Shown here one piece after another: positions 1,333-60,684 of a stretch of DNA of 64,000 nt (the stretch's first letter is position 1; the number at the start of each line of letters is the position of its first letter). Made by a program: the position numbers and the translations under genes. The stretch is from IMG/VR virus record IMGVR_UViG_3300020148_000038; one strand, given 5' to 3'. This DNA comes from an uncultured virus (IMG/VR IMGVR_UViG_3300020148_000038). Its lineage: Duplodnaviria > Heunggongvirae > Uroviricota > Caudoviricetes. The notes under the pieces are model-generated. The model did not search any database and had not been told where the DNA came from. It was given only the letters and a program-made list of their open reading frames with translations.

Positions 1333-1392
1333 AACTTATCAGCAATATGGGACATTCGAGGGTGGTCGCGTGTCATAGGACAGCATTATGAT
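1333..1392. promoter_or_regulatory. divergent pair of TG(T/A)C-N12-TAnnnT promoters
   Basis: minus: TGTC 1354-1351, TAAGTT 1338-1333; plus: TGTC 1371-1374, TATGAT 1387-1392. Confidence 0.7.
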
Positions 1393-1413
1393 TACAGCTA
1401 AAAGGAGTCTTAA

Positions 1414-2205
1414 ATGTCAAACACCGTACCACAACAGAAGGTTGTTTCCAAGAATGGAAGGTCGTTCGTCCAAACTTACCATGTCAACCCCAACGCTAAT
1501 GTTTCTTCACAGAAACGCGATCTTTCTGGAATTGCCCCGTCTGTGCCCAACAAAGGGCACAATGAGTCGCATGCAGACCTCGACCATGCATTAGCATTAT
1601 ACAAAAATCGTTCGTATGGTAATGGTCGTGAACAAGACTTTGTTGATGGTTTTAATGCATGTTATCAAAATGGATTTTCCGATCCCGGACAGGCGTTGCG
1701 AGAAGACGGAAACAGAGACGGTAACAGCGCGGGCTATGCAGGCTATTTTACTGGATTCAGGGCCGCGTTGATAGCAAAGCTTGGACAGGAGCAAGGCAAT
1801 TACTTCACCAACGGTGTTTATCTTAAGACGGATGTGTATTCGGGCGGACTTAGCCAAAGCGATAGTGAGCTATACAAAAACAAAGTGCTTCCCTATAACC
1901 CATTCGTGGCGGGAGATGAAGTATTCATTCCTGCTGGAACCCCGTATGAGACTTCAGACCCTTCTAAGCCTGGTATTCAGTATAGCAAACGTGGACAAAG
2001 GGTTAAGCTGTATTCATCCGATCAGGGGTATGCGGATGTTGCTCTAGGAAGGTGCGAAATAGGAATGCCGATGATTACTGCGGTTGGGTCTTCATCATAT
2101 TACAAGGACTACGTAGTGACTCCCGATGTCATCTTGGCGAACGACCATGAATTGCGTCCTGGGGATTTACGAGACGCTGAAGAAACACTCCGTGGTACTA
2201 TCTAA
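1414..2205 (+). CDS. DKNG-leader family protein (variant leader)
   Basis: N-terminus VPQQKVVSKNGRSFVQTYHV; AAGGAG SD. Confidence 0.8.
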   Translation: MSNTVPQQKVVSKNGRSFVQTYHVNPNANVSSQKRDLSGIAPSVPNKGHNESHADLDHALALYKNRSYGNGREQDFVDGFNACYQNGFSDPGQALREDGNRDGNSAGYAGYFTGFRAALIAKLGQEQGNYFTNGVYLKTDVYSGGLSQSDSELYKNKVLPYNPFVAGDEVFIPAGTPYETSDPSKPGIQYSKRGQRVKLYSSDQGYADVALGRCEIGMPMITAVGSSSYYKDYVVTPDVILANDHELRPGDLRDAEETLRGTI

Positions 2206-2226
2206 AAACTAAGGGTTGAATAACGA

Positions 2227-2277
2227 CACCCCTTTTGGGGTGGTAATACGTATTACCTTTTCATGTATTTATACATG
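2227..2277. repeat. cluster of three palindromes (hairpin plus operator-like sites)
   Basis: CACCCC-tttt-GGGGTG; perfect 16-bp GGTAATACGTATTACC at 2242-2257; CATGTA-ttta-TACATG at 2262-2277. Confidence 0.6.
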
Positions 2278-2335
2278 TATTTATCAATGTAGATGTTATC
2301 CTTAACAAATCACTATTCAAAGGAAACGATTTGTT

Positions 2336-4378
2336 ATGCATTTAGCATCAATACCCAAACGTGATGAAGCAGAAAACTCCATCATGCAGACGATAACCAT
2401 TGCGGTTTCGGCAATTCTCATCGCGGCCGGTTTGGTTACTGCTCCTGGGCTTATCAATAACGCCAGGGACAATAACGCCAGAACCGACCTTGCAAACATT
2501 GCATATGCTCAGGAGTTCTACCTGTCAACTACAGGTCACTACTATGACGTTGACAACACGAACACCTTCTTGACAATCGAACAAGAAATGACGGCAAAGA
2601 GTATTGATAAGGAATCTGCTGTCAACAACCTACAATATGAAGCTCAGAACATCGGGGTCAACGGACTCGGAACATCTGTGAATGTTGCGGCGGATGATGT
2701 AGCGGGCGTTTCTTTCACCTTGTCTGGTGATGTCACGGGTCATGCTGTTGAAACCTGTGAGGGTGTTCCGTACTACCTTCTCAAGGATCAGTCGGCATCG
2801 GGTAAGTGGTTCTACCGTGGCTCCGGTTCTGCCGAAACAAGCAGTGACTTCTCAAAGATTTCCTCTGGAATCCCAGCCAAGGTTCTCGTTGCTTGCCCAG
2901 GTTTCGGTGATGGATTCGGTGAAGCACCATCCGATGACGAAAATCCAACAGATCCGGGTAACAACATCTCGGGAGGACAGGCTTTGCCGCTCAACGTCGG
3001 CTCAACCAAATATGACGACGACATCTACTTTGGGATAAGTGGATACTCTGACGATCCGGACGTTTCGGATTTCGGTGGAGGTAGCTTCTGGAGTCCAGAG
3101 CCGGGTTCTCAAATCTCTCTTTCCTATTACGATTCGGCAACCGATTCTTTGATTGAATTCCTTGACCATGCGTTCTCTTCTACTGAATGGGAAGATGCTT
3201 ATGTTCAATATGACGGCTACAGCAACATGCTTTTCGGTAAGTATGAAGGTGAGTATGTCACGCCTTCTAACGATGCTGATTTCCAAAAGATGCATGATAA
3301 CGGTGGAAGTATGACCTTTACTTCATCCGAAACTGGTGCAGAGATAACAGTTCAATGGAGCGCTCCAAATGCAGAATACATGGATCGCGATCCTGCCTTC
3401 CCTCAGCCTCCTGTTTACTTGGAGCATTGGAGCCAGTTGACACAAGCTCAGATGCAAACATTTGACATCTCTGGTGATGGCATGACTGTTATGACGGTTT
3501 ATTCCAGCAGCACATGTGGAGTAGAACTGCCCGCCGATAACGACGAATGTGGTTACATCTGGTTGTCACATGACGGCGGAGAAACATTTAATGCCATTAA
3601 AGATTTGAATGGCGTGGCGGCTAATTACTATCCGGTCGGCGGTCAGGTTAGCGGCGCTAAACTCTGGATCAAGACATTCCAAAGTAACAACGTAAGATAC
3701 TATACGTCTATTGACAGTGGAAACAGTTGGCAACTTGCTGATGTTCCAACCAATATAGGAATGGGTAACACTCCTGAGTTCGCAGTATCTCCTGACGGAA
3801 CAAGAATAATGGTTGGAAGTGGAACAACAATCCGAGTTTCTACTGGCAGTTCCACATATAACGAGGCAACCATTTCTGGTGCGGTAACCAGATTGGTATG
3901 GGGTGCAGACGGCACACTATATGCCACTTCCAACAGTGGTGGATGGCGCAGTACCAATAATGGTGTTTCATGGTCTGCATTGAGTGGCGTGCCAACTACA
4001 GCTAACGGTGTTGCTGTGAATGGCGACGGTTCTGTTGTGGTAGTTTCGGCGGCTGCACAGGGAATCTACCTATCAACAGATCATGGTGAAACCTTCACCA
4101 GGGTTAACGAAGATGGATGGAACATGCGTTCTGTAGCCATCTCTGCCGATGGACAGAAGATTATTTCTGGTGGTAACAGCGCCGTATTGGTATCTACTGA
4201 TCAGGGTGCGACTTGGAAGCGTCAGGAAGCTCTTGGCGGTACTGACTGGACAAGAGTGCAAGTGGCAGATGATTTCTCACGAATCTATGCGGCGAAAACA
4301 TATTCTTATTCATTCTCCGATTCTGGACTATATGTTCACCTCGAAGGTGATGAGGAATGTGTTGACTATTGTGACTAA
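2336..4378 (+). CDS. pilin-like N-terminus fused to a BNR/Asp-box beta-propeller (putative surface adhesin)
   Basis: hydrophobic helix followed by NARDNNARTDLANIAYAQEFY (type IV pilin-like); five S-x-(D/N)-x-G-x-(T/S)-(W/F) Asp-boxes in the C-terminal half. Confidence 0.7.
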   Translation: MHLASIPKRDEAENSIMQTITIAVSAILIAAGLVTAPGLINNARDNNARTDLANIAYAQEFYLSTTGHYYDVDNTNTFLTIEQEMTAKSIDKESAVNNLQYEAQNIGVNGLGTSVNVAADDVAGVSFTLSGDVTGHAVETCEGVPYYLLKDQSASGKWFYRGSGSAETSSDFSKISSGIPAKVLVACPGFGDGFGEAPSDDENPTDPGNNISGGQALPLNVGSTKYDDDIYFGISGYSDDPDVSDFGGGSFWSPEPGSQISLSYYDSATDSLIEFLDHAFSSTEWEDAYVQYDGYSNMLFGKYEGEYVTPSNDADFQKMHDNGGSMTFTSSETGAEITVQWSAPNAEYMDRDPAFPQPPVYLEHWSQLTQAQMQTFDISGDGMTVMTVYSSSTCGVELPADNDECGYIWLSHDGGETFNAIKDLNGVAANYYPVGGQVSGAKLWIKTFQSNNVRYYTSIDSGNSWQLADVPTNIGMGNTPEFAVSPDGTRIMVGSGTTIRVSTGSSTYNEATISGAVTRLVWGADGTLYATSNSGGWRSTNNGVSWSALSGVPTTANGVAVNGDGSVVVVSAAAQGIYLSTDHGETFTRVNEDGWNMRSVAISADGQKIISGGNSAVLVSTDQGATWKRQEALGGTDWTRVQVADDFSRIYAAKTYSYSFSDSGLYVHLEGDEECVDYCD

Positions 4379-5171: not shown

Positions 5172-5300
5172 ATGTCTTTCAAGAAAAGACTGATTGAGGA
5201 AATTATGATCACGGGAGCAATGGTTCTTCTTGCGCCCGTGATATTGATTGATGCTTACAAGCTCTCTCGCAAGAGCAAAAGTCAGTCAAGAACAGATTGA
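5172..5300 (+). CDS. 42-aa membrane peptide (not in ORF track)
   Basis: AAGGAG SD; MSFKKRLIEEIMITGAMVLLAPVILIDAYKLSRKSKSQSRTD. Confidence 0.55.
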   Translation: MSFKKRLIEEIMITGAMVLLAPVILIDAYKLSRKSKSQSRTD

Positions 5301-6358
5301 CTAATCTGAAGACACTTTTGGAATCTATCGTCACGGTTAGTTTCGTCAACTATTTCTAGTTCGACTCCGTACTCTTCGTAAAGACCCATCAAGATCTCTC
5401 TATTCTTTCGTCTAGTTTCATCAGTGATGTCGAGACGTGTTCCATCTAACTCGTGTGGATTATGAGGTTCAATCCAAATTCTCTTATCTATCTTGTCTGC
5501 TTGTGCCTTGATAAGTACATCAAGAGCTTCGTGCTTTCTTCCGTATGAGGTGACATGGAAGAATTGTGTGTAGATGAGGTCGGTATCAACGAACAAGACT
5601 TTGTTGGCTGACTTTACAGCTTCGTTGATGAGGTGGCAATGCCCTGCTGCGATGTCAATGTAATCAATCGGATTGTCTATATCCGAGTAGGCGTTCTTAT
5701 CGTCGTAGTAGGTTCTACCGTATTCAGGAACGGCTACAGAGTTGAATGTTTCGGCAAGCATGTTACTCAGATGAGTTTTACCTGACGATTCGATTCCACA
5801 CAGGACAACTCGTTTCGTATAGTGCTTTTGTACCACCTTGGGAAGATAATCCCAATACTTGTATACCCCGCCCTCTCTAATTTGAGTGGCCGAGATATCG
5901 AACATGTCACGTGATTCGTAGAAAACTACGTGTTCTGCTTCTGGCACATATTTGGCGAAGTAGCCATCATACTCATGAGTGTTGCTAAATATGATGTCGA
6001 TATGTCCACCTACCGCTTCTTTCAGTTCTCGGTAGGTTTCCTCAATGAGAGGATCGTTCATATGCTCCGGACTTCTATGTTCGTATTGAGAAAGAACCCG
6101 AATGTTAGGGAAAGCTTTGAAAGACTCAGCGATCCAAGCCTCCCTAACTTTCGGGTCTACCCATTCGAACTTGTCGGTATTCTCAATGAGTTTCCGTTCG
6201 TGCTCTTCGTCGTATTGGACAGCGACAAAGAGGACATCAACCATTGATTGTGCTTTGAGAATGTAACTTTGGTGTCCTTTGTGGAACGGGAAGAACTTCC
6301 CGCCGTAGACCCCTACTTTCTTATTAGCGTATGTAGATACCGAAGGTCCGAAATCCAT
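5282..6358 (-). CDS. nadR: NadR-type bifunctional NMN adenylyltransferase / ribosylnicotinamide kinase (no HTH)
   Basis: GKFFPFHKGH (HxGH) motif; P-loop GIESSGKT; PEYGR and VDTD motifs; adjacent to pnuC. Confidence 0.92.
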   Translation of the reverse strand: MDFGPSVSTYANKKVGVYGGKFFPFHKGHQSYILKAQSMVDVLFVAVQYDEEHERKLIENTDKFEWVDPKVREAWIAESFKAFPNIRVLSQYEHRSPEHMNDPLIEETYRELKEAVGGHIDIIFSNTHEYDGYFAKYVPEAEHVVFYESRDMFDISATQIREGGVYKYWDYLPKVVQKHYTKRVVLCGIESSGKTHLSNMLAETFNSVAVPEYGRTYYDDKNAYSDIDNPIDYIDIAAGHCHLINEAVKSANKVLFVDTDLIYTQFFHVTSYGRKHEALDVLIKAQADKIDKRIWIEPHNPHELDGTRLDITDETRRKNREILMGLYEEYGVELEIVDETNRDDRFQKCLQISQSVLD

Positions 6359-6361
6359 GTT

Positions 6362-7129
6362 TTACTCTTTCTCTAGAACCACTGCATTATCCAACTCGGC
6401 AGCCTTGGAGATCTTGCGCCAGTTGACGTATCCGTAGATAGAGTTCACGAGGAACGCAGTCCACATAGCTGCCAAAGTCCAGTCGTTTCCACCGGAAGAG
6501 ATGAGTGTTGCAAACCACAGAGAGATGGTGAGCACATTTACTACAATCCAGAGAATCCACTGTTCGGCGTACCTGAAAAGCATCAAGAACTGTGCAACGA
6601 TGGAGAGGACAACAGCGGCAGAGTCAAGACGAACCTGCTGAGCGTTGATTGTTTCCAGAAGAACAGCGTATCCAAGAACTGCTACGAGTGTAACGGGAAT
6701 AAGAATGAGCCACTGTTTGAGGGAGAGTCGTTTAGCGTATACATCCTCACCGTTTACAGCTTCTTTACGCTTCTTGCTGTGCTTGAACCACATGTATAGA
6801 CCAACGAATTGGATTGGGAAGTAGAAGAATGCGTTCAACATTGCCTCTCCATAAAGTCCATATCCGTATGATACATATGCATATGTTCCTGCTTGAATAA
6901 GCCCCACATAGAATGTTGCGATCTTTCCCTTGGCCGCGAATACTACACAGAGAATTCCGGCGATAGAAGAAATGAGGCTGATAGGGGAACTTTCCCAGAT
7001 GACAGCCAGGGCGGTGATGACGATGGTGGAGATTGCCAACCAAGCAATCTCGTACTTAGACCAGTCCTTGAAAAGCGATAAGAAGGAGTCCTTGACTCCA
7101 AGTGCAATGCTTGTCATTTTTACTTCCAT
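6362..7129 (-). CDS. pnuC: nicotinamide riboside transporter PnuC
   Basis: multi-TM protein with EQWILWIVVN and NSIYGYVNW motifs; operon with nadR. Confidence 0.92.
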   Translation of the reverse strand: MEVKMTSIALGVKDSFLSLFKDWSKYEIAWLAISTIVITALAVIWESSPISLISSIAGILCVVFAAKGKIATFYVGLIQAGTYAYVSYGYGLYGEAMLNAFFYFPIQFVGLYMWFKHSKKRKEAVNGEDVYAKRLSLKQWLILIPVTLVAVLGYAVLLETINAQQVRLDSAAVVLSIVAQFLMLFRYAEQWILWIVVNVLTISLWFATLISSGGNDWTLAAMWTAFLVNSIYGYVNWRKISKAAELDNAVVLEKE

Positions 7130-7146
7130 TCTGTAATCGTAATATC

Positions 7147-7228
7147 ATACAGAAGGAAATTCCTTTTGCACAAGTCAAGCTTGCATCTCCTTGTTTTCTT
7201 CGAGGCGAAGGAGCTACCCTCTGTATAC
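7147..7228 (-). ncRNA. candidate compact NAD+-II (pnuC motif)-like riboswitch
   Basis: GAGG-GUAGCUCCUUCG-CCUC-GAAGAAAACAA-GGAG H-type pseudoknot at the 5' end of the pnuC leader; alternative 10-bp pairing 7226-7217 with 7156-7147. Confidence 0.5.
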
Positions 7229-7233
7229 GAAAA

Positions 7234-7263
7234 AGTATATCACAGATATTCATTAATAGTCAA
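7234..7263 (-). promoter_or_regulatory. sigma70/SigA-type promoter for pnuC-nadR
   Basis: TTGACT-N18-TATACT. Confidence 0.65.
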
Positions 7264-7276
7264 TAAGACTAAAATG

Positions 7277-7702
7277 TTATTCACGAGAATCTAGAATGCT
7301 CATTATCTTCTGCACTAGTGGTGTGCTATTGAGCCATTCAGCAGGATTTTGCTCCGATATGTTAGATAAACTGTAAACAAAATCCGAGAACTCGGCAGGG
7401 TCTATTTCGGGTATATCCAAAGATGTCATCGATACGTGTACTGCATATCTCAGGAGCGCGCCTAGATAAAAGCTTTCGATGTCTCTAAAGAGAAAGTTTA
7501 AGACGTTACGGAGGTATTCTGTGGTCATCTCTGTCAATACATGTGGCACTCCGTTGACATCAACCCACCATTGGTCTTGCTCGAATACACGTTTATCCAG
7601 ATTACCTGCACCTAGTTGACCAAATGATGTGAAGGGAAATTCTCCTGGCAGTAAGAATCTATCGGCAGGTACGGGAGATGGAAGTAAGTTATGTTCGCTC
7701 AA
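7277..7702 (-). CDS. hypothetical protein
   Basis: 141-aa ORF with WWVDVNG and WLNSTPL motifs. Confidence 0.75.
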   Translation of the reverse strand: MSEHNLLPSPVPADRFLLPGEFPFTSFGQLGAGNLDKRVFEQDQWWVDVNGVPHVLTEMTTEYLRNVLNFLFRDIESFYLGALLRYAVHVSMTSLDIPEIDPAEFSDFVYSLSNISEQNPAEWLNSTPLVQKIMSILDSRE

Positions 7703-8397
7703 GATAACTCCTTAATAAGCACGCCGTCCATGTAGATAGCGTTTTCCTCATATAGATTAAAGTTCTTGTGATCGACATAGTAGCAGAATGAGTAAGTGCC
7801 TGGGATGACATCGAAAACAACGATTTGTTTAAACATTCCGTGTTTATTGTTCGTACCACTATTATTCAAGTACAAGTCGAAATCAGAGATGATGTAATCC
7901 CAATAGCCACCTTTTACTTGTTCAACCAAGTTATAGCCAGCTTGCTGATATATTTCTGGTTCCAGATTAGCGAAGAGAACCGAATTTCTTTCAGAGTTGC
8001 AATATATTTCGGGCGGTACTGGAATCATCTCGTTGATAAAACCGGCAGCTTCACATTCCTTAGCATTTGCGGCTCGTCCTTGTCGGTTGAAAAAGTTTTC
8101 TAATGACTCGCTGTATGTGTTGAGAAGTCCGTTGAAAACAACCATCTTACCGCTGGGGATATCTATCTTGATTTGATGAATTCCGTCGCCTTCATATGTG
8201 CATGGCTCTATCACTGACATCTTGCCATGTACAACTTCGAATTGGGGGACATAAGAGCAATTCGTGCAGCCAATGTATGAAACGGCTTTTCCTTTACCGC
8301 CCTCTATCTCAATTTCAATGCTCTTTATGGATTCGTACAACTCATGTCCGTTTAATACCACCTCGGAAGGTGACACAATGAGGTGCTGTACTTTCAT
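7699..8397 (-). CDS. hypothetical protein
   Basis: 232-aa ORF; leaderless after TTGACA(8432-8427)-N17-TAATAT-N6. Confidence 0.75.
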   Translation of the reverse strand: MKVQHLIVSPSEVVLNGHELYESIKSIEIEIEGGKGKAVSYIGCTNCSYVPQFEVVHGKMSVIEPCTYEGDGIHQIKIDIPSGKMVVFNGLLNTYSESLENFFNRQGRAANAKECEAAGFINEMIPVPPEIYCNSERNSVLFANLEPEIYQQAGYNLVEQVKGGYWDYIISDFDLYLNNSGTNNKHGMFKQIVVFDVIPGTYSFCYYVDHKNFNLYEENAIYMDGVLIKELS

Positions 8398-11613: not shown

Positions 11614-11645
11614 GATGTAATATTAGATTCTTCCGCTGACATCAA

Positions 11646-12281: not shown

Positions 12282-12361
12282 GTTGTATAACCTCTTTCAA
12301 CAATATATTAGTCCCTTCATATGACAGTGGTTCATTGTACTGTTTATGATAAAGGTAAAAC

Positions 12362-13162
12362 ATGTCGAATCAACAATCCGGGTTTGGAACTATTATTTTG
12401 CCATCGGGCGAAGCTGCTAAATTGCGTAAGAAGCTGCGCGATTTTCAAATTCTAGAACAAGAAAAATCTTTCGTATATGCACAAAAACTGCTTGATACGA
12501 TGACTCCAGAAGAGAAGAAAGAGATAAACCCGAATAGAACGCTATTTAGACTTAACGCTCATGTTTCCGATATGCAATGGAATGCTGCCAGAATGGTTGA
12601 AAAGCACATAGCTAACCGTGGTGTCAATTCAAAGGTGTTGAAGAAATCCGACCTTCCGAAGATAGAAGCTGCTCGTAAGGTTTTCTATGGAGAAGACAGC
12701 ATCAGAATCGAATTCGAAAATGATGGCAAGAGTGTTTATGTTGATTATGACGGGAATCGTGCCCTAGACAACATGCTATCTCGTCAAAATTCGCTATGGG
12801 ACATATGCAAAGATCACTTTAGTAAAATGAAATGGACTCGTGGAACTGGAGGAATCATCGAAGGTGAGGATGAATACGCGGGAGACGGTAATGTAATGGG
12901 CTTTGGTCCATTAGGCGCTTCTCAAGACCCAAGTATTACTTATCCTTATCTCGATTCATCTGGTGTACGAGTTGACCCGGAGAAGTTCAGAAACCCGGTC
13001 GATTACGAAAAGCTCTATCGAAATCTACCTCCTGGAGTATCTGTTCCTATGGGTGGTTCGGTAGGTCATGTCGGCGGGGGCAGATGTGGACATCCGCTAC
13101 CTCGCGGAGGCTATTGTGGTCGTCCATTTGGGCACAGAGACGGTATTCACAGGAAGAAATAA
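12362..13162 (+). CDS. hypothetical protein with C-terminal CCHH-like motif
   Basis: 266-aa ORF ending CGHPLPRGGYCGRPFGHRDGIH. Confidence 0.75.
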   Translation: MSNQQSGFGTIILPSGEAAKLRKKLRDFQILEQEKSFVYAQKLLDTMTPEEKKEINPNRTLFRLNAHVSDMQWNAARMVEKHIANRGVNSKVLKKSDLPKIEAARKVFYGEDSIRIEFENDGKSVYVDYDGNRALDNMLSRQNSLWDICKDHFSKMKWTRGTGGIIEGEDEYAGDGNVMGFGPLGASQDPSITYPYLDSSGVRVDPEKFRNPVDYEKLYRNLPPGVSVPMGGSVGHVGGGRCGHPLPRGGYCGRPFGHRDGIHRKK

Positions 13163-15025: not shown

Positions 15026-15124
15026 TTCGGGTGCTCCAATCGGTTTATTGCTATGCTAATTCTAGCATATTTATTCTGTAAGTCAAGTCACTCACTTTGA
15101 AGAGAATGGGGTGTTGATCGAGTT

Positions 15125-15745
15125 ATGATTGATTCGCTACCGAAGGAGTTGGTCATGTCTGCCATTTCATTACCACTAACGCTTAAGCCTGTTGATAATA
15201 TATCATCCGAAGAAAGAGCTACTATCCTTGAATCATTGGGCGATAACTATTCGACCATTGGAACTGCATCCAATCCAGAAGAATGCTTGGAATACTTCGA
15301 AGGAAAGCATGGTGCATGGGTCATCTTCTCCCAAGAGCAACCTGTCGGATTAACAGGTCTTCACCGTTCCTCTTCTCGGGGTGAAGATTACATTCAGACT
15401 TCAACTTACATCTTCAATAAGAGCAGAAAGATGGGTTACAACAACTTCTTAAAGAGGGTCATGGCGCAAGCTTTCATTCATACCCCTCCATTTAAGATGT
15501 ATTGCGTGATTCGAGACTGGAACGAAAACGCCAGAAATTCTGTAGAGTCTGCCTTTCCAGATGTCAAGCCGATATTGGAGACGAGAACAGAAGCTCAAAA
15601 GCTGATAGACCCTGTTGAGCATCAATGGTTCTATGATTTCTCTAAGACTCACAGAAGGGATATTCTGTCGATGGAGAAGCCGATATACAACACCATTACA
15701 ATGTGGTTGAACAATCAGCGTAAACAGCTTTTCAAAGCGGCCTAA
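15125..15745 (+). CDS. GNAT (RimJ/RimL-like) acetyltransferase-fold protein
   Basis: PVGLTGL...STYIFNKSRKMGYN (motif A-like) and IRDWNENARNSV. Confidence 0.55.
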   Translation: MIDSLPKELVMSAISLPLTLKPVDNISSEERATILESLGDNYSTIGTASNPEECLEYFEGKHGAWVIFSQEQPVGLTGLHRSSSRGEDYIQTSTYIFNKSRKMGYNNFLKRVMAQAFIHTPPFKMYCVIRDWNENARNSVESAFPDVKPILETRTEAQKLIDPVEHQWFYDFSKTHRRDILSMEKPIYNTITMWLNNQRKQLFKAA

Positions 15746-16445
15746 AATTTGATGATGCTAATTCGGTGATGGCGATAATGTTAGCGATTGTTTCTGTTCT
15801 GATGAGTCTTACTAAATCAACTGACTCACCCAACTCATAGCCCCGGTCATTCTCTACTAGGTGTGCCCATTCACGCATATTATCTTCGGATAGATTGAAA
15901 CCATCATCTCGAAGATGCTGTATCTTCTTATACTGATTCTCTGTCGCATACATAGAATCGTTAATGTAATATTCTCTCCATATCTTCAAGAATGACTGGC
16001 GGGCGTAATCATCGATAAAAGGTGTTTCGAGAGTTTTTAGTTCTTCGGTGAGAAGTCCTGCCGCCCATGAACTTCCGTCTTCGGATTGAGTGCTACCCGT
16101 GATGCTGATAGACCACGCTTTATCAAGTTCTTTCAGATCGGTTGTCGTTACATCGTAAATGGGTTTAAGAACGACGTTGACATTGAGATGGCGTCCATCC
16201 TTGGTGATTCCTAATGAAGAAGTGGGTAGATGATATTCTCCGTCTTTATAGTCGATTCCACCTTCATCGAAAATCTCTGCAAGAAGCTTTTCGGTCATAT
16301 CGAATTCTTCGTTCCATTCGTCCTTGAAGGACGCCCTGGGTTCGAGTCCAACCACTCGGGAGTTGGTGATGTCTTCTGTCTTCTTGTAGACGTAGGTATG
16401 CTTTCCGTTTTTATCCACGATTGGCGTTTTCTGTAAGTTGGACAT
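15732..16445 (-). CDS. DKNG-leader family protein
   Basis: KTPIVDKNGKHTYVYKK; promoter TGAC-N12-TATACT-N6-ATG. Confidence 0.85.
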   Translation of the reverse strand: MSNLQKTPIVDKNGKHTYVYKKTEDITNSRVVGLEPRASFKDEWNEEFDMTEKLLAEIFDEGGIDYKDGEYHLPTSSLGITKDGRHLNVNVVLKPIYDVTTTDLKELDKAWSISITGSTQSEDGSSWAAGLLTEELKTLETPFIDDYARQSFLKIWREYYINDSMYATENQYKKIQHLRDDGFNLSEDNMREWAHLVENDRGYELGESVDLVRLIRTETIANIIAITELASSNFRPL

Positions 16446-16451
16446 ATAAAG

Positions 16452-16490
16452 AGTATATAGGAATCTGGTGTCACCTGAAAGGTATATTCT
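16452..16490. promoter_or_regulatory. overlapping divergent TG(T/A)C-box promoters sharing GGTGTCACC
   Basis: plus TGTC 16469-16472-N12-TATTCT-N6-ATG 16497; minus TGAC 16473-16470-N12-TATACT-N6-ATG 16445. Confidence 0.75.
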
Positions 16491-16496
16491 TTGAAT

Positions 16497-17315
16497 ATGA
16501 ATAATCAGCTTGTCCCAACTCCGATAGTAAGAAAAGACGGTATTCCAACAACCGTCTACAGACGTCCAGATGATGCCTTAGGTGCATCAAAACGTAGGGT
16601 TAATGATGTTGCGTTGCCCAAGACTGCTACTTTCATGGGAGAAGAATTCAATGTTGTCGATATGAATAATCTTGATATTTCTATGAAGCCGTTCGAGTTT
16701 GAAAGCAAGACAGGCTTTTTGAACACAGGTAGGTCTTTCGAGGCGGAAGCTGTTGTTGACGCCATTAGAGATTACAGCAGCGAGCTTTCTAATAGATTGG
16801 AGCTTGCTTCTGAGGAAATCGACATTCATGAAGAGTTTGGGTTTTCACCACAAGAAAGTGCAGAGGTACAAAAGCTTCACGAAGAGTTCGACAACCTAAG
16901 AAACATCATTAAAGGATTTGGTGTTGTTCGAGAAGAAGAAATGGCTTCCGATTATATACAGAGCGGACTGCTTGTTGAATGGACTGATGAGCTTGACACC
17001 TTGGCTAGAAACTGGCAAGAGACGATGTACACGGATTCTGGAATGATTACTTCGGAAAATGACCTGGATATTCGTGGAGAACAGATCATCGATGAACTCA
17101 TCAGGAATGACTACAGTTTTGATGAATTGCCGAGCAAAATACTCGACACATTGAATCTTGGTAAAGACTCTGAACGTTTTTACGGAATGTCTCTTGACGA
17201 GGTAAGAGAAACCGACGAAAGTATTTTCGACTACCGCAAAATAGCAGAGGCGTTGATTGAGTCCGATAACGTTCCTAGTGCAGAAATCAACGGAACAAAA
17301 TATTACTTGCTCTGA
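16497..17315 (+). CDS. DKNG-leader family protein (RKDG variant), highly acidic, weakly ArdA-like C-terminus
   Basis: LVPTPIVRKDGIPTTVYRR; ends FDYRKIAEALIESD...EINGTKYY. Confidence 0.8.
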   Translation: MNNQLVPTPIVRKDGIPTTVYRRPDDALGASKRRVNDVALPKTATFMGEEFNVVDMNNLDISMKPFEFESKTGFLNTGRSFEAEAVVDAIRDYSSELSNRLELASEEIDIHEEFGFSPQESAEVQKLHEEFDNLRNIIKGFGVVREEEMASDYIQSGLLVEWTDELDTLARNWQETMYTDSGMITSENDLDIRGEQIIDELIRNDYSFDELPSKILDTLNLGKDSERFYGMSLDEVRETDESIFDYRKIAEALIESDNVPSAEINGTKYYLL

Positions 17316-17452
17316 TCACTATCAACACCAGTACCGTTACATGAAGCGCACTTAGGGATGCGCCCGTTCACTGCGGCGTCATAGTATCCGCTTCCGCTGC
17401 AAGCGACGCACTTCTTTTTGGTCGTGCTTTCGTAACTTACCTTAAGCTTCAT
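17303..17452 (-). CDS. 49-aa stand-alone DnaJ-type zinc finger (not in ORF track)
   Basis: CVACSGSG and CASCNGTG (two CxxCxGxG); TTGAAC-N17-TAGCAT-N6-ATG. Confidence 0.75.
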   Translation of the reverse strand: MKLKVSYESTTKKKCVACSGSGYYDAAVNGRIPKCASCNGTGVDSDQSK

Positions 17453-17490
17453 AATTTAATGCTACCAGAACATACTCTGGCGTTCAACTA

Positions 17491-18510
17491 TTATTTGCGA
17501 AAGTCTATGTCGAGCTTGGTAACTTTTTGCTTCTTGTTTGCGTTTCTATGGATAAGTTTAGTTACATCGGATGCTCTACTTTCATCCAATGTGTAGAAGA
17601 ACGGCTTATCGTCTAGCGCAAACCAAGCCGTTCTTGCATTGGCGGATCTTCTTCCGCCGCCGAAGAAGGCGTCATCAAAACCAGAGTATATTTTGTTGTT
17701 TCCGAGAATAGAGTTGTGATGTCCGGACTGTCTTGCAGAGCCATCAACAGACTTCAGCACCGCTGCGGCATCTGCAATATCTTGACCGACGAAATAAACG
17801 GTTCTGTTTACACCGTTGATGGTTACTGGTACTTCTGCGTATTCTAATTTTTCAGAGTCGCGTAGTGTCCCAATTGCTCTAGGAATGGCTCCGAATTCGT
17901 ATTCGGACGCGCCCATGTATTCCAACTCGTAATGTGTGTCAAACGAGCCTTCGTCCCCACCAGAACTCTCCATTCTTCTATTAAATATTTGAGAGAGATA
18001 GAATCTTTTTGTGTCCCTTTTTGAAATCCCAGGAACATTCACTCCAACTGTTTCTGCGGATTGACCGAAGATGGCGTTTTCAACTTCATTGTCTTTGTCT
18101 TCGTAACTCGAACTCTCGGGGATATCGAAAGTATCCATAGGTACATCTTCTAGACCCGAGGCGGCGATGATTTGTTTAGCAGCTTCTAATTCATTGGACG
18201 GAGAGAAAGAATGGAGTTCGCCTGCCAGGTGTTCACTCAAAGCTCCGAAGTAGACGAAATTAGGATTAGATAAGTCTTCGAAGAACATCTTAACCCTCTC
18301 CACATCACGCTCTAGAATTCTAGGGTTAGGAGCCTGTCCGTTATACATGACGGTGTTGATGATATTTTTGGTCTTCATGAACAAAGACCTGTTAGCCACC
18401 TTGTTGACTGCTTCGAAGTTTCTTGCGTTGGCTTCCTTGTTCAGATTCTTATGAACGGTGGTTCTTTTGCCGTTCTTGTCAATGATTTGGGTGGGGGTAA
18501 GATTGTTCAT
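17491..18510 (-). CDS. DKNG-leader family protein with YMGASEYEFGAIP domain
   Basis: LTPTQIIDKNGKRTTVHKN; promoter TGTC(18538-18535)-N12-TAGCAT-N6-ATG. Confidence 0.85.
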   Translation of the reverse strand: MNNLTPTQIIDKNGKRTTVHKNLNKEANARNFEAVNKVANRSLFMKTKNIINTVMYNGQAPNPRILERDVERVKMFFEDLSNPNFVYFGALSEHLAGELHSFSPSNELEAAKQIIAASGLEDVPMDTFDIPESSSYEDKDNEVENAIFGQSAETVGVNVPGISKRDTKRFYLSQIFNRRMESSGGDEGSFDTHYELEYMGASEYEFGAIPRAIGTLRDSEKLEYAEVPVTINGVNRTVYFVGQDIADAAAVLKSVDGSARQSGHHNSILGNNKIYSGFDDAFFGGGRRSANARTAWFALDDKPFFYTLDESRASDVTKLIHRNANKKQKVTKLDIDFRK

Positions 18511-18605
18511 ATCTATATGCTAATTCTAGCTTCCGACACTGATTGCAGGTTGTCAAAAACCAGCTAATATGTTATAGTTGTTTTGCTAGAAAGGCGGGTT
18601 CAAAT

Positions 18606-22449: not shown

Positions 22450-22497
22450 CTGGTGTCACACCGGTCTTATAGTATATAGATGAAAGGTAGTCAAACT

Positions 22498-34276: not shown

Positions 34277-34282
34277 GTTTGG

Positions 34283-36111: not shown

Positions 36112-36113
36112 TT

Positions 36114-40423: not shown

Positions 40424-40861
40424 TTATCCCAAAGCCAGTTTTGAGTCAATCATGTTTGCTGCAATGTCGATGTCAATGTTGGTGCGGTAGGCAAATAGCA
40501 GGACTTCTATACTACCAAATGCATTGTAATCTCTGACGGTCTTGACCCCATCGAATACAGAGAGTTCTCTTATTCGGTCGATTTGAACCCCTTGCAAAGC
40601 GAGTAAAATTGCATAGGGTTGCCAATCCCCAAATTCTTTGGTTCCGAAATATATCCACCCGTAAACAGCTTTCAATACATCACTGCCTTTTGGTTTAAAT
40701 CCCCCATTTCTGAGAAAAGCCAAAGAGTCGATAAACCTTTTGACGGAAGTTATATCCCCGAATACTTCAGTCCATGAATTGATAATTTTGAATATGTCTT
40801 TTTCCGGTATATTGAACGCTAATTTGGCTACCTGCCAGACATAATCTTTGTCGTTGAGCAT
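40424..40861 (-). CDS. C-terminal IDxD-module family protein
   Basis: start MLNDKD (TAATG overlap); ends LLFAYRTNIDIDIAANMI. Confidence 0.75.
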   Translation of the reverse strand: MLNDKDYVWQVAKLAFNIPEKDIFKIINSWTEVFGDITSVKRFIDSLAFLRNGGFKPKGSDVLKAVYGWIYFGTKEFGDWQPYAILLALQGVQIDRIRELSVFDGVKTVRDYNAFGSIEVLLFAYRTNIDIDIAANMIDSKLALG

Positions 40862-42755: not shown

Positions 42756-42788
42756 ACGCTAATATTAGAAGATCCCACTGACTTAGGT

Positions 42789-45151: not shown

Positions 45152-45553
45152 TCAATGTTTGGATATTGTCTGACCTATTTTAATATGCGCCGCAATAGGC
45201 AGGATACAGAGGACAATAGATATCAACAGTACAATGTAACTACCTGTTGCTGCGGCGATGAATGCCAGCAAGAAGACTATAATCCACCCAACTAAAGCAA
45301 TCATCGCATAGTCGCTCTTGGGGTGGCTATCTCTGGAAACAGGTTGTTCATTGCTCAGCACCTCGTAAGCTCTTTGGACTGCACGATTGGCTATTTCATC
45401 GCCCCCATTAATAGGATCGGTGAGGTGTAACATTCTCTTGTATGCAGAGATGATTTCGTGTTCAGTGGAGTCTTCGGCAATTCCGAGGGTTTTGTATGCG
45501 CTTTCTCGTCGGCTAGTCTGAATTGGTTTCATTTCGTATGCAGCTTTCACCAT
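45152..45553 (-). CDS. degenerate J-domain membrane protein (HPD replaced by TDP)
   Basis: AYKTLGI...EIISAYKRMLHLTDPINGGD...RAYEVL plus two TM helices. Confidence 0.75.
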   Translation of the reverse strand: MVKAAYEMKPIQTSRRESAYKTLGIAEDSTEHEIISAYKRMLHLTDPINGGDEIANRAVQRAYEVLSNEQPVSRDSHPKSDYAMIALVGWIIVFLLAFIAAATGSYIVLLISIVLCILPIAAHIKIGQTISKH

Positions 45554-49062: not shown

Positions 49063-49222
49063 GTTTTTATTATGCCCTAGTCGAATGACATTATTATGAG
49101 TGACTTCCGCGATGTCCCAGTTTTCTTTGGCAACTGCGTTTGGCGACCGGCATCCAATATCCACACGGTGTATATTGTGCTGTGTTCTTATGGTTGATAA
49201 GTTTGGGCAATTCTGTCATGAC

Positions 49223-49601: not shown

Positions 49602-49740
49602 TTTATTCTCCTTTTCTCTTTACAAGACCATCATAGCACCGACTACAGACAACTTCTAGTCATTTTGACTAAAACTATTAAATTTGTTTAGAACAGCTTG
49701 AATCAGCGGAAACACCTCTCGCTTCATATAGAATCCACGC

Positions 49741-51032: not shown

Positions 51033-51141
51033 TATGAAGCTCCTTCGTTTCGTTTTTCGATAATAATAGAACAGTATCATATTATCTAAAATTTGTCAAT
51101 CGTGTCTGGACTTGTTCATAGATTTCTGATATATTTTAGGT

Positions 51142-51669
51142 ATGAATGCATTTGAGTTCGAGAACTTGTATGAGAAGTATTCGATTGACATCAACAACAT
51201 GACCTGTGTGATGTTGAAGACTCAGGATATTCCTGTTGACACGCTGCTTGATGAACGCAAGTTGTTCTTCGCTGACAAGGAGCACCTTCCCTTTGTGCAA
51301 GGGGCAGTAGCGTCTAACAATTCTCATATCACTTTGCATCAGTCCCTTCTTCCGTGTGTAACTGATGAAGATATCGATCTTGTGCTTGATGGGTGCGAAC
51401 CTGCCGGTTTTGTCACCATCAACTCTATCGAGACTTTCACCGGTCAAGAATACTCCACAATCGTTGCCAAGGTTAATGTGGATGACTGGATTCTCGAAGC
51501 ACACACCCGGTTGAGCTTTTTGCCCCATGTGGATCTTTTCGAGGATTTCATTCCTCATATCACCCTTGCCTATGTCGTACCGGGTTATGTTGATGAAGCC
51601 GTCGAGCGTCTGAGTTTCCTCGTTGGACAGACCAAGACAACTGCTGCACGCATGTCACCTTATCTGTAG
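51142..51669 (+). CDS. 2H phosphoesterase, Acb1-like
   Basis: two HxT motifs (SHITL and FEDFIPHITLAY); TGGACT-N17-TATATT-N6-ATG. Confidence 0.75.
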   Translation: MNAFEFENLYEKYSIDINNMTCVMLKTQDIPVDTLLDERKLFFADKEHLPFVQGAVASNNSHITLHQSLLPCVTDEDIDLVLDGCEPAGFVTINSIETFTGQEYSTIVAKVNVDDWILEAHTRLSFLPHVDLFEDFIPHITLAYVVPGYVDEAVERLSFLVGQTKTTAARMSPYL

Positions 51670-52347: not shown

Positions 52348-52451
52348 ATGTAGAGAGTATCACTAGTATACGTCGCTTATGTATTATTTTTTAGTATGTT
52401 TGCACAGTTACACGCCTCTGTAATGTCTTCTATATTTGGTAATCTATCTCT

Positions 52452-53339
52452 GTGAGGTTGTCCAGTCTGATTCCGAAGAGAATCATAGATAAAAACGGTA
52501 AACAGAACACTGTTTATATTAAGCCTGAAATTGATGCACCGACCAGACATGTTCCCATCCCAATCAATAGCAATCCAGATTTTCATAGAAGCATATCCAT
52601 CACGGGCTGGCCGACTAGGGCGTTAGCTGGAGTGGATTCAGAAGGTAAATGGGATGGACGCAAACTAGAGCATGAAAGAGTCTTGATAGGTGGATATGAA
52701 AGTTGGCATATAGCTCCGGAAGGACGCTCGGGTGCATATTGTTATCAGTGCCATTCGTTTTATCCTAAAGATACCCACGACTTCTTCAATGCTGAGTGCG
52801 AGGTGTGTGGGTTTACATCTATGGGCAAACCGCTTTCGGGAATAAGAGAAGAGTTTTTGGGCTATTTCGACACATCTACGGTGAAAGACGATAGATGGTT
52901 TCATATTACTACCAACCCGGATTGGGGCAAGGATATCAATGACCCCGAGTATATGGATAAGCCTTTTGTTCATGTAGGGACTGAAGAGGCTGCCTATGAA
53001 AGAATGAGAGATATCATCAAAGATCTTAGAGGCGCATCGAAACCAGATTTTTATTTATACGAAGTGTCGGTGAAGGAGTCCGCGCCTGTTCACCCCGCTA
53101 TCATCTCTGACTACGACATCTCTGCTCCGAAAACTATAAACCAAGTGAAAGAGGAAATCGCGAACGACATCAGTGAAGACGGAACTTCTTACGATGATCG
53201 TGCCGAGTTCTTCGAGATGTATGAATTGAACGGGGTAACAGCCTACATGAATGAATATGAATCCGTAGGTTCCGTTTCGTTGATAGCTCACCCAGATTCT
53301 CTAGAAATTATTGGGGTGAAGGCAATAAATCTAGATTAG
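52452..53339 (+). CDS. DKNG leader + Zn ribbon + ADP-ribosyltransferase-like domain (paralog of 28440..29255)
   Basis: IPKRIIDKNGKQNTVYIK; CYQC...CEVC; WFHITT, VHVGTEEAAYER, AYMNEYESVGSVSL; TGTC(52424)-N12-TAATCT-N6-GTG. Confidence 0.7.
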   Translation: MRLSSLIPKRIIDKNGKQNTVYIKPEIDAPTRHVPIPINSNPDFHRSISITGWPTRALAGVDSEGKWDGRKLEHERVLIGGYESWHIAPEGRSGAYCYQCHSFYPKDTHDFFNAECEVCGFTSMGKPLSGIREEFLGYFDTSTVKDDRWFHITTNPDWGKDINDPEYMDKPFVHVGTEEAAYERMRDIIKDLRGASKPDFYLYEVSVKESAPVHPAIISDYDISAPKTINQVKEEIANDISEDGTSYDDRAEFFEMYELNGVTAYMNEYESVGSVSLIAHPDSLEIIGVKAINLD

Positions 53340-55161: not shown

Positions 55162-55197
55162 GTGAACATCATACACGACACCACCGAAACGAAACTT

Positions 55198-57547: not shown

Positions 57548-57575
57548 CCTCGGTTCCTGATGGTACATTATCTAT

Positions 57576-58145
57576 ATGTCAGAAAAAGTGCCCAAGAAAA
57601 TTGTTGATAAGAATGGCAAACACACAACGGTTTATGTCAAATCTCAGTCTTCGGGCAAAATAGACCGAATCGTTCCTCAAAACGCCCCACCTATCGTTGG
57701 ATACGAAACTATAGATATCAGGGATACCTATGAGGAACGGGCAACTAATTTAGTCAATACATTATTCTCGGCCGCTCGACATGCCAGCGATAAATCAAAT
57801 GACGACGATTTATCTCGGCATCTTTTTGATATCGGGCATGACGTTGTTGCTCTCATGTCAGAAATGCATCTGAAAATTCAAAGACAACGTGAAGAGATAG
57901 AGTTGCTTCAACAAGGTAGACTTATGAACTATTCACAATTCGTGGACTCTCACTCCAATTACTTCTTCGGAACGAAGTTGGAAAGGTTCAAGGACGCTTC
58001 CGGTAAGGAACATCTTGTGATTCCAAACGGGGTTGCCATAGGAAGTGTCTCTATGGACGATGCTGATTTAACGAAATTCAGGAAAGCTGTTTCTGAGTAT
58101 AACTCGATATTAGCCGCGCTGGAATCTTATATTTCAAAGGAATAA
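57576..58145 (+). CDS. DKNG-leader family protein
   Basis: VPKKIVDKNGKHTTVYVK; TACATT-N6-ATG with a degenerate CCTC box. Confidence 0.85.
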   Translation: MSEKVPKKIVDKNGKHTTVYVKSQSSGKIDRIVPQNAPPIVGYETIDIRDTYEERATNLVNTLFSAARHASDKSNDDDLSRHLFDIGHDVVALMSEMHLKIQRQREEIELLQQGRLMNYSQFVDSHSNYFFGTKLERFKDASGKEHLVIPNGVAIGSVSMDDADLTKFRKAVSEYNSILAALESYISKE

Positions 58146-58863: not shown

Positions 58864-58983
58864 TCAGCCGAGACGAGCAAATCCTTTGTACCAGTCGCCC
58901 CTTTTGCGGTAAGAATCGACCGAAAATGCTGCCAAAGCCAAAATCGGAACAATAACCGCCCCCAAAACAACTAACCTCTTCAT
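58864..58983 (-). CDS. 39-aa membrane peptide (not in ORF track)
   Basis: MKRLVVLGAVIVPILALAAFSVDSYRKRGDWYKGFARLG; TAGACA-N17-TATCCT-N6-ATG. Confidence 0.6.
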   Translation of the reverse strand: MKRLVVLGAVIVPILALAAFSVDSYRKRGDWYKGFARLG

Positions 58984-59015
58984 GTCGAGAGGATAACATC
59001 ATGCCCGACGTTTGT

Positions 59016-59996
59016 CTATAACGGTTGCGTCTCTTCGTATAACCATTCGGGTATCTGACGTTCAGGGAATCTGACCATTGTCGAGTTACCTATTGCGTAG
59101 ACTGATTCTTTGCTTGCCTTCTCTATGAATCCTAGGTTCTCCTGCCTGAAGAAATAATTCCCTAAAACGTCTTTGCCGTTTCCGTAGTAAAACATATTGT
59201 CTTCAAATCCGTACTCTGTATAGAACTTTCTTAACCTACTGTAATGAGACTTTCTGTTTTCTTCGTAATGGATTGAGCTTTCCCTAATGCTTCCATCTCC
59301 TGCTTCACTTGGAACTAATGAAAGGACATAATGATTTTCGTCAGCGTGTTTGGTGATGATCGACATCACATGCGAACCTATTCCAATTCCTCGCATCTGT
59401 GCGTCTATGTATATGTCGTTGATGGCGCAGAACTTTCTTTCTTCGTCGGCGCTTCTATCCGATAACTTGATATAGATGACCCCGTTGTATATTTCTTTGA
59501 TGAAAGCGGTCATCTCTTCTAACGTTGCGAAAGAAGGCACTATGGTTTTGTTTATTTTCTTCGCTTGTTCGAGAAGATATGTTCGGTCTTTGGGTAATCT
59601 AACCAAACCCGTCTCTCTTCCATCTCGCGAAGATACTGTGGCGTTAATCCATCCGCCAGGTTCTCCAGCGCTATGCAGTCTGACCGTTTCAAGGTCTATA
59701 TCATGTAAACGATCTATATCGCTCCAGTCATAGGCTTTATTTCTGGATACAATCTCTCGCATTATCCGTGGTATAGACAATCCTTCTGGACATTCACTCA
59801 ATCCACATCCGACTACGTTGTGTTTTCTACTTTTGCAGATTTTGGGTTCAAGCCTGTTCTGAATAAGTGCGTTCTTGTCGTGTAACAGCCCGCTGTTGTC
59901 AACGTTTACAACCCTATTATTGGTTTTTCGGGAGATGTTCTTCCATACATGAGTGAACTTACCGTTCTTGTCTATGATGGGAACCCGAGTGGACAT
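59016..59996 (-). CDS. DKNG leader + GNAT-like domain
   Basis: RVPIIDKNGKFTHVWKN; INDIYIDAQMRGIGIGS and RLRKFYTEYGF. Confidence 0.8.
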   Translation of the reverse strand: MSTRVPIIDKNGKFTHVWKNISRKTNNRVVNVDNSGLLHDKNALIQNRLEPKICKSRKHNVVGCGLSECPEGLSIPRIMREIVSRNKAYDWSDIDRLHDIDLETVRLHSAGEPGGWINATVSSRDGRETGLVRLPKDRTYLLEQAKKINKTIVPSFATLEEMTAFIKEIYNGVIYIKLSDRSADEERKFCAINDIYIDAQMRGIGIGSHVMSIITKHADENHYVLSLVPSEAGDGSIRESSIHYEENRKSHYSRLRKFYTEYGFEDNMFYYGNGKDVLGNYFFRQENLGFIEKASKESVYAIGNSTMVRFPERQIPEWLYEETQPL

Positions 59997-59998
59997 GT

Positions 59999-60619
59999 TT
60001 ACCCTCCGACGAGGAATTCGTAATCTTTGTTGTTTCCAATGAACTCTCTGAATTCAGCGGTTTGCTTCTTAACGCTATCAAACATCTTGGTTACGCGATG
60101 CATTTCGTCATAGTCGCTCATATCGAAGCCTACTTCGCTGGCTAGCTCTTGTGGCGTCCGACAGTTGTCGGATATGGAGGCGTCGAGAATCAAGGAGTGA
60201 AGAACGTCTTCGACAGTTGGAACCGTATCAATAGCAAGTCCAGTGCTGTATGGAATCTGAATCTCTTTGTTGTCGTCATTCGTAAGGGTGATGATAAACT
60301 TGTTTTGTAATATGTTCTTACCAACATTATCTGTATAACGCTGTCCTATGTAATAAGCCGAACCGGTCACCCCGAGCCTTTTGGATACTTTTTCGATCCT
60401 AAAAGTTTCTCCGTCTGAGTATGAACCTTTAGGGAGCATCGGAGTTGAACTCTCTGGTTGTAAATCAGCGATATTGGTGACGGTTCTATTCTCTTGGTGC
60501 CCGGTATTTGGAACGGCCGACACCATCTTTTTCACTCCGACTTTTGGCTCGGCGCGTTTATGTACAGTGGTCTTACGTCCGTTCTTGTCTATGATTTGGG
60601 TGGGTACGAGGTTTGACAT
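59999..60619 (-). CDS. DKNG-leader family protein
   Basis: LVPTQIIDKNGRKTTVHKR; GGTC-N12-TATAGT; AAGGAG SD; PTVEDVLHSLILDA domain. Confidence 0.85.
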   Translation of the reverse strand: MSNLVPTQIIDKNGRKTTVHKRAEPKVGVKKMVSAVPNTGHQENRTVTNIADLQPESSTPMLPKGSYSDGETFRIEKVSKRLGVTGSAYYIGQRYTDNVGKNILQNKFIITLTNDDNKEIQIPYSTGLAIDTVPTVEDVLHSLILDASISDNCRTPQELASEVGFDMSDYDEMHRVTKMFDSVKKQTAEFREFIGNNKDYEFLVGG

Positions 60620-60684
60620 TGGGATGCTCCTTAACAATGTTACTATACAACGAGGGTGTGACCTCATTCGAATAGAGTTTCTAA

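Follow-up and report, generated by a model that had tools for sequence, protein, structure and literature searches.

Mycobacterial promoters controlled by PafBC are silent for RNA polymerase carrying the housekeeping factor SigA. They fire only once PafBC, a heterodimer of winged helix-turn-helix (wHTH)-WYL type that is activated by single-stranded DNA (ssDNA), has come to lie between sigma domain 4 and the DNA, where it recognises the sequence GTC; to go by its title, a paper of 2025 (PMC11804915) reportedly has the binding of ssDNA to PafBC trigger the response. In the middle promoters of phage T4, an activator box, the MotA box near -30 and about 12 nucleotides (nt) upstream of the host -10, replaces the -35 element and sigma domain 4 is remodelled, a mode known as sigma appropriation by AsiA and MotA; the sequence of the MotA box differs from TGTC. 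We describe here a class of promoters with a TG(T/A)C box and no -35 element in 64,000 nt of DNA from an uncultured virus of the Caudoviricetes (IMG/VR record IMGVR_UViG_3300020148_000038). This whole stretch is called the window below, and the promoters precede most genes of a family whose products share an N-terminal tag around the peptide DKNG.

According to PMC8635444, the consensus bound by PafBC in vivo in mycobacteria is the 22-nt sequence tGTCgg(N10)tA(N3)T, made up of a -26 element (-23 to -28) on the 5′ side and the SigA -10 on the 3′ side, with no -35 element. The helix-turn-helix (HTH) of PafB contacts the -26 element, and GTC is read via its two G:C pairs; the same text names this promoter mode "sigma adaptation" and draws a parallel between it and T4 AsiA/MotA. 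According to PMC6789036, targets are activated by PafBC through this motif, which is non-palindromic. For the gene products, the closest described proteins are the polyvalent proteins surveyed by Iyer et al. (2017, PMC5512222); this survey treats ARTs, GNATs, 2H phosphoesterase, ArdC-N and LPDs, describes how the proteins are injected along with the DNA of the parasite in the very first phase of infection, and mentions processing by zincin-like metallopeptidases. No PafBC-type promoters on phages or plasmids were reported in the literature as searched by title and opening of the abstract.

A box at fixed distance from the -10 of the DKNG genes

Twenty-one genes of the window have the N-terminal consensus MSxLVPxxIxDKNGKxTTVH in common. 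Three of them (23059, 42055 and 59996) overlap the preceding family gene or start 0-2 nt behind it and, therefore, 18 family genes head their own unit. The pattern nG[TA]C-N12-TAnnnT, where N12 stands for 12 nt of any sequence, was found within 70 nt upstream of 14 of these 18 heads, as compared with 0 to 3 of 18 at every other spacing from 6 to 21. Only 8 of 46 non-family heads carried it (Fisher p = 1e-5), these being the open reading frames (ORFs) outside the family that reach 60 amino acids (aa) and have 25 nt or more free upstream; a further 33 non-family ORFs fell outside this selection. An enrichment over non-family genes, which a reading of the sequence alone had anticipated, is thus borne out. 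The signal is positional and not one of abundance: over the whole window the exact pattern is not enriched, with 21 occurrences at N12 and 9 to 25 at spacings 6 to 23. Among the 21 exact N12 sites, 11 lie just upstream of family genes, 5 upstream of other ORFs and 1 upstream of a doubtful ORF.

None of the 18 family heads has a TTGnnn 16 to 18 nt before TAnnnT, whereas 11 of the 46 non-family heads do. The non-family heads show a second peak of the box at N18 (8/46), which is the TGAC within TTGACA-N17, and ordinary TTGACA-N17-TAnnnT promoters serve the interleaved non-family genes. Since the N12 box precedes family heads and TTGnnn is restricted to non-family heads, two promoter classes are interleaved in the window.

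Each site extends over 22 nt (4+12+6). Alignment of 17 window sites gave T in 13, G in 15, T in 14 or A in 3 at the third position, and C in all 17, in agreement with the conservation of this base claimed earlier. The base after the box is A in 10, G in 5 and T in 2 sites, and the second following position has no preference. In 12 of the 18 family heads the -10 stands exactly 6 nt before the start codon, so most would be leaderless, as had been proposed, and transcription probably starts at the ATG. The box of these 12 genes lies 25 to 28 nt before the ATG and therefore in DNA upstream of the transcript; if the genes are leaderless it falls at -28 to -25, too near to the normal -10 to act as a SigA -35. 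A TAnnnT ending 5 to 8 nt before the start codon was found in 12/18 family heads and 18/46 others. With 30 leaderless unit heads out of 64, leaderless starts seem common in this system.

The sites of the window are as follows; genes called leaderless are predicted to be so.

1333 to 1354, minus strand: TGTC-N12-TAAGTT, non-family gene 1326-640, leaderless (6 nt, then ATG)
1371 to 1392, plus strand: TGTC-N12-TATGAT, DKNG gene 1414-2205, with a 21-nt leader containing aaaggag
11620 to 11641, minus strand: TGTC-N12-TAATAT, DKNG gene 11613-11071, leaderless
12305 to 12326, minus strand: TGTC-N12-TAATAT, DKNG gene 12281-11646; the box shares a pentamer with the divergent site 12322-12343
12322 to 12343, plus strand: TGAC-N12-TACTGT, non-family gene 12362-13162, which has a weak match to a CDI-toxin restriction-endonuclease-like domain
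15064 to 15085, minus strand: TGAC-N12-TATGCT, 38 nt ahead of non-family ORF 15025-14807
16452 to 16473, minus strand: TGAC-N12-TATACT, DKNG gene 16445-15732, leaderless; TGTCA/TGACA shared with 16469-16490
16469 to 16490, plus strand: TGTC-N12-TATTCT, DKNG gene 16497-17315, leaderless
18517 to 18538, minus strand: TGTCgg-N10-TAGCAT, DKNG gene 18510-17491, leaderless; layout kept in two orthologues (36% identity)
22454 to 22475, plus strand: TGTC-N12-TAGTAT, DKNG operon 22498-23058 and 23059-23766
24584 to 24605, minus strand: TGAC-N12-TAAGCT, DKNG gene 24577-24071, leaderless
28412 to 28433, plus strand: TGTC-N12-TATGAT, DKNG gene 28440-29255, leaderless
37032 to 37053, plus strand: TGTC-N12-TATACT, DKNG gene 37071-37925
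42762 to 42783, minus strand: AGTC-N12-TAATAT, DKNG genes 42755-42048 (leaderless) and 42055-41624
49069 to 49090, minus strand: TGTC-N12-CATAAT, DKNG gene 49062-48415, leaderless
49630 to 49651, minus strand: TGTC-N12-TATGAT, 65-aa ORF 49601-49404, with a leader containing aaaggag
51103 to 51124, plus strand: TGTC-N12-TAGATT, non-family gene 51142-51669, 2H phosphoesterase/RNA-ligase-like (phrog_755, E 2.7e-10)
52354 to 52375, minus strand: CGAC-N12-TACTCT, DKNG gene 52347-51673, leaderless
52424 to 52445, plus strand: TGTC-N12-TAATCT, DKNG gene 52452-53339, leaderless, GTG start
55168 to 55189, minus strand: TTTC-N12-TATGAT, DKNG gene 55161-54691, leaderless
57548 to 57569, plus strand: CCTC-N12-TACATT (degenerate box), DKNG gene 57576-58145, leaderless
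60642 to 60663, minus strand: GGTC-N12-TATAGT, DKNG genes 60619-59999 and 59996-59016, the latter with a weak GNAT-like C-terminus

The remaining head, DKNG gene 36988-36734, is divergent from 37071 and has only a poor site, AGAC-N12-CAGCAT. The sequence-only reading had described all 18 family sites, and they were found where and as it placed them: 12 exact sites (CATAAT replacing TAnnnT at 49062), four boxes with one mismatch (42755, 52347, 55161 and 60619), the degenerate box of 57576 and the lack of a good one at 36988. Its assignment of the three other family genes to positions directly behind a family member, and of the motif to the non-family gene 640-1326, also held. Outside the family, at least 4-5 genes of the window have the motif too, so the class is not confined to DKNG genes.

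Two divergent pairs, 16445/16497 (16452-16490) and 12281/12362 (12305-12343), each have a single TGTCA/TGACA pentamer that forms the box on both strands, which explains two of the TGAC variants, those of 16445 and of the non-family gene 12362. The -10 hexamers of each pair are 29 nt apart. The arrangement suggests mutually exclusive or alternating use of the two promoters.

Conservation of the motif in other elements

DKNG genes of metagenomes were fetched by a degenerate coding pattern only, a procedure blind to the upstream sequence. Among the matches listed, to which all counts of this paragraph refer, the motif nG[TA]C-N12-TAnnnT was present within 90 nt upstream of 30 of 47 non-redundant tagged N-termini, and other spacings gave 0 to 3 of 47. 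Control loci from the same coding pattern, comprising internal matches and one conserved bacterial protein, had it in 2 of 51 cases. The 30 sites show T at the first (19/30) and third (28/30) positions and G or A after the box (26/30); 7 of them are leaderless and 23 have leaders of 18-39 nt. The loci with the motif span 45-62% G+C content (GC), and TTGnnn-N16-18-TAnnnT precedes 2 of the 47 tagged genes.

In a distant relative of the window element, an IMG/VR record of 202,737 bp and 51% GC (here G001), 15 sites lie no more than 60 nt from the start of an ORF: ten are found ahead of ten different family genes, out of the 14 in this record, and five ahead of five of the other ~228 ORFs. The motif with its exact spacing, the missing -35 and the link to the family are hence conserved outside the window. 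Moreover, three orthologues of the 18510 type (36-57% identity) keep TGTC, 12 nt, TAGnAT, 6 nt and ATG while the intervening sequence differs, which is, at the level of sequence, a clean phylogenetic footprint.

Comparison with PafBC-dependent and T4 middle promoters

The window sites share with the PafBC (RecA-NDp) promoters the 22-nt layout, with tGTC and a purine followed, 12 nt after the box, by TAnnnT. The RecA-NDp motif, tTGTCRgtg-N8-TAnnnT, would fit the purine after the box. The canonical -10, the missing -35 and the non-palindromic box are also common to both, the position of the box would agree as well, at -28 to -25, if the genes are leaderless, and G and C are the best kept bases, with T or A tolerated between these two read bases. 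Judged by sequence and spacing, the TGTC-N12-TAnnnT class is of PafBC type. The sequence-only reading had thus recognised a genuine second class of promoters with a strong link to the DKNG genes, but the class is a known one and not new. What differs is the setting: PafBC promoters stand before chromosomal repair genes, whereas the promoters described here are on a giant phage-like element and drive tagged paralogues. As far as titles and openings of abstracts show, the novelty lies in this use of the promoters, for a large regulon whose tagged genes resemble effector genes and reside on giant elements that are uncultured.

With T4 middle promoters the sites share the hybrid construction from an activator box and a host -10. 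This analogy, already drawn from the sequence alone, is apt, as PMC8635444 itself calls T4 AsiA/MotA a related mode. In contrast to T4, where MotA and AsiA are phage-encoded, no activator candidate was found among the proteins of the window or of G001.

The DKNG-tagged proteins

A profile built from alignment A1 splits off exactly 21 of the 100 crude ORFs of the window (E <= 7e-12; next best 0.87), a separation that is partly circular because the profile was made from the same 21 genes. The shared part is limited to the first ~25-45 residues and the C-termini differ, with the exception of the pair 28440/52452 (34% identity over 293 aa). Codons within the DKNG motif vary synonymously, which indicates that selection acts on the peptide. 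The sequences clearly point to expansion of the family by duplication or recombination of the 5′ end.

The family is common in metagenome contigs, where at least 47 distinct tagged N-termini occur among at least 127 loci. A coding pattern written for the most frequent form of the DKNG motif matched nowhere in 185,579 species represented by a single genome each. A tblastn search with the 35-aa tag gave nothing significant among 50,697 cultured-phage records; the only match, one Pseudomonas phage under two accessions, had an insignificant E of 5. The narrower alignment A2 yielded 77 pattern matches in genome contigs, about the chance number by hand estimate and none confirmed by tblastn, in which a 35-aa query is liable to miss the E-value threshold regardless, and a single protein yielded 244 pattern matches in viral contigs with 0 confirmed. 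Gene 11613 seemed to match Mycobacterium phage Cactus over its full length, but the match runs across two distinct genes, does not represent a tagged homologue and was discarded.

For gene 42755, the ESM Atlas had no usable feature and only template modelling (TM) matches below 0.5. For gene 18510, aligned with 4 relatives, the AlphaFold2 model has a mean predicted local distance difference test score (pLDDT) of 37.9 and places a low-confidence N-terminal hairpin around DKNG. The DKNG core also occurs within ...LSNLAIVDKNGKATRVGF... of a conserved bacterial protein found among the control loci (e.g. L009, L010 and L024), which we take to be ribosomal protein L24, where it forms a hairpin. The tag may fold as a beta-hairpin similar to that of this protein.

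In related contigs, the DKNG proteins carry LPD29, ART-PolyVal, ArdC-N with MPTase-PolyVal, GmrSD_N, DUF7226 and DUF7007 domains, and 9 of the 38 proteins scanned there had any Pfam hit. The C-terminal LPD29, ART-PolyVal and ArdC-N plus MPTase-PolyVal domains are those of polyvalent proteins, and the window has weak GNAT-like and 2H phosphoesterase-like matches. Unlike the multi-domain polyvalent giants, the DKNG proteins are separate, small, single-domain proteins behind a tag of ~25 residues. They look like single-domain versions of injected polyvalent anti-defence effectors and presumably act as effectors; by analogy, the shared tag may be a delivery or packaging signal.

Other features of the window and of G001

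The window is part of a 494,976-bp contig, in which gene 42755 matches itself; the word-based homologue search with this gene returned no database protein besides itself. Recognisable window genes encode isocitrate dehydrogenase, an LCP transferase, a Fic protein, two DNA methylases and two J-domain proteins, as well as two products that match phage families too, a PnuC transporter and a NadR-like adenylyltransferase. No tRNA gene was found in the 64 kb, and plasmid blastn with the icd region returned nothing relevant. Window 15700-19800 is present in only three public runs, all of DNA and labelled 'ant metagenome'; one of them contains all sampled words and may be where the sequence came from.

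Besides the tagged family, pilin-like BNR proteins and an orthologue of 339 aa (36% identity) occur in both the window and G001. By its gene content G001 looks like a huge phage. It encodes DnaE, a clamp loader, NrdIEF, LigA, thymidylate synthase, dUTPase, RtcB, a CCA-adding enzyme, NAMPT, HNH nucleases, Cas3/Cse1/Cas5/Cas6e and a type IV pilus-like set; no capsid or terminase gene was recognised in it. Its orthologue of gene 18510 is identical to a protein recorded on a 654,127-bp contig and, therefore, G001, a 203-kb IMG/VR 'provirus' with a CheckV value of 96%, probably covers only part of a far larger element. At 64899-81841 it has 64 tRNA genes and a tmRNA (tag ANASRNDFALAA) in one ~17-kb array.

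The 680-aa protein encoded at window 2336-4378 (plus strand) combines a hydrophobic pilin-like N-terminus with a BNR/Sortilin propeller and has three relatives in G001 (81954-83537, 31065-31574 and 6775-8343), one of them 77% identical over 70 aa; locus L141 (4574-10663) belongs to the same observation. G001 also has two T2SSE ATPases, a T2SSF platform protein and an A24 prepilin peptidase, and a pilus or secretion machine is unusual for a phage-like element. J-domain (DnaJ) proteins lacking the remaining DnaJ parts are encoded at window 40861-41571 and 45152-45553 (minus strand) and at G001 101698-102468. They adjoin a conserved N6/N4 DNA methylase and may be chaperone-hijacking factors. The auxiliary metabolic genes at window 5282-7129 (minus strand) specify PnuC and the NadR-like NMN adenylyltransferase, with NAMPT and PRPP synthetase as the G001 counterpart, and a full NADP isocitrate dehydrogenase at 18603-19790 (plus strand) is followed by three orphan genes in one operon.

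Window 31300-33200, with shoulders from 29500 to 36700, shows an extreme strand bias: the plus strand has 75% G+T, 13.5% A and 11.4% C, with C down to 7.8% near 32500. All three minus-strand frames are therefore nearly stop-free and crude ORF calls are unreliable there. Real-looking, frame-switching segments of minus-strand protein lie at 33746-34291, 32796-34040 and 32179-33132.

Explanations of the promoter class

We favour, with a probability of about 0.6, that the sites are hybrid promoters of PafBC type, which host PafBC probably activates in the presence of ssDNA and which drive tagged anti-defence-like effectors. The window would belong to a giant (495-kb) phage-like element of an actinobacterium that puts ~20 tagged genes and a few untagged ones under a -26 element (tGTCR, -28 to -25) located exactly 12 nt ahead of an ordinary TAnnnT -10, without a -35. 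The tagged genes would be silent for plain SigA polymerase until ssDNA produced at DNA entry, replication or damage activated host PafBC or an unseen PafBC-like adaptor, host PafBC being the simplest source of such an adaptor. An incoming or replicating element would inevitably make ssDNA, switch PafBC on and fire the tagged genes, and early anti-host effectors would then be produced. The identity of the activator and the ssDNA trigger are what we infer here. The earlier proposal of middle or late timing found no support, a PafBC-type promoter predicting firing on ssDNA or DNA damage.

The host is presumably an actinobacterium. This link comes from G001: one of its proteins, of 227 aa, contains a WhiB-like domain that exceeds the Pfam cut-off, and the DnaE of G001 lies near those of Streptomyces phages; the window adds only the leaderless style. 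The WhiB-like family was found in Corynebacterium only among 14 control genomes, and the best 12 DnaE matches listed were all Streptomyces phages, the collection searched being rich in actinophages.

Several observations weigh against the PafBC explanation. The box is poor or missing in 4 of the 18 family heads, 3 of 17 sites have A for T in the box, and the "gg" after GTC of the mycobacterial consensus is not kept. The Pfam scan of the window, 64 of 495 kb, gave no sigma, WYL or HTH hit, and G001, covering 203 of 654 kb, gave no WYL, Sigma70_r2 or HTH_11; a WhiB is missing from the window as well. Its GC of 43-44% is low for Actinobacteria, and its NadR-like gene has its best match in Bacillus phages. 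No public RNA run containing window 15700-19800 was found.

An activator or sigma factor encoded by the element itself and unrelated to PafBC could also recognise the host -10 along with a TG(T/A)C box at -26, giving a timed middle or late regulon whose likeness to PafBC promoters would be convergent. Phages often carry their own promoter-specificity factors; WhiB proteins bind sigma domain 4, and the 227-aa protein of G001 is a conceivable adaptor. PMC8635444 mentions T4 MotA/AsiA, and a novel factor could hide among orphan proteins, since 76 of the 100 crude ORFs of the window lack a Pfam match at E <= 0.01 and the searches covered only the parts of the two elements given above. The sequence-only reading had proposed such an element-encoded factor. 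The regulator searches in the window and G001 returned none, four related viral records were also without WYL, and it is improbable that convergence would arrive at the 4-nt core, the purine and the 12-nt spacing of a known host system; we consider this explanation rather unlikely. Still less likely is that host polymerase reads -10-only promoters unaided, with TGTC serving as the half-site of some DNA-binding protein, a repressor or other, that overlaps the spacer. Many actinobacterial promoters lack a -35, and some boxes lie within short palindromes (GGTGTCACACC at 22498 and TGTCATAGGACA at 1414). Most sites have no palindromic partner, and the zero tolerance in spacing over diverged elements (14/18, 30/47 among the matches listed, and 10/14 sites) argues for a protein working in register with polymerase; the PafBC motif is itself non-palindromic (PMC6789036).

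It would be very surprising if the pattern had no regulatory meaning, either as a chance occurrence or as a cassette of promoter and N-terminus duplicated along. Growth of the family by duplication or recombination of the 5′ end and the unremarkable count of N12 sites over the whole window are compatible with it, but the spacing controls (14/18 against 0-3/18) largely refute it. Furthermore, box and -10 are kept while the intervening 12 nt and the flanks are not, and the motif is carried by non-family genes and by elements of 45-62% GC.

Implications

Beyond the favoured PafBC explanation, a wider proposal, which we hold only tentatively, is that giant (0.5-0.65 Mb) actinobacterial phage-like elements hijack the ssDNA-sensing PafBC, so that entry or replication fires more than 20 single-domain, "monovalent" effectors whose DKNG head would be a new signal for delivery, packaging or sorting. 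If true, this would be the first mobile-element regulon based on sigma adaptation, together with a new protein-targeting tag. The promoters are short and portable, and would offer a cheap handle on a large dark family by predicting when its members fire and in which hosts. If the favoured explanation is right, sigma adaptation by PafBC would do more than switch on chromosomal repair: very large mobile elements would use it as a control point for the timing of their anti-host genes.

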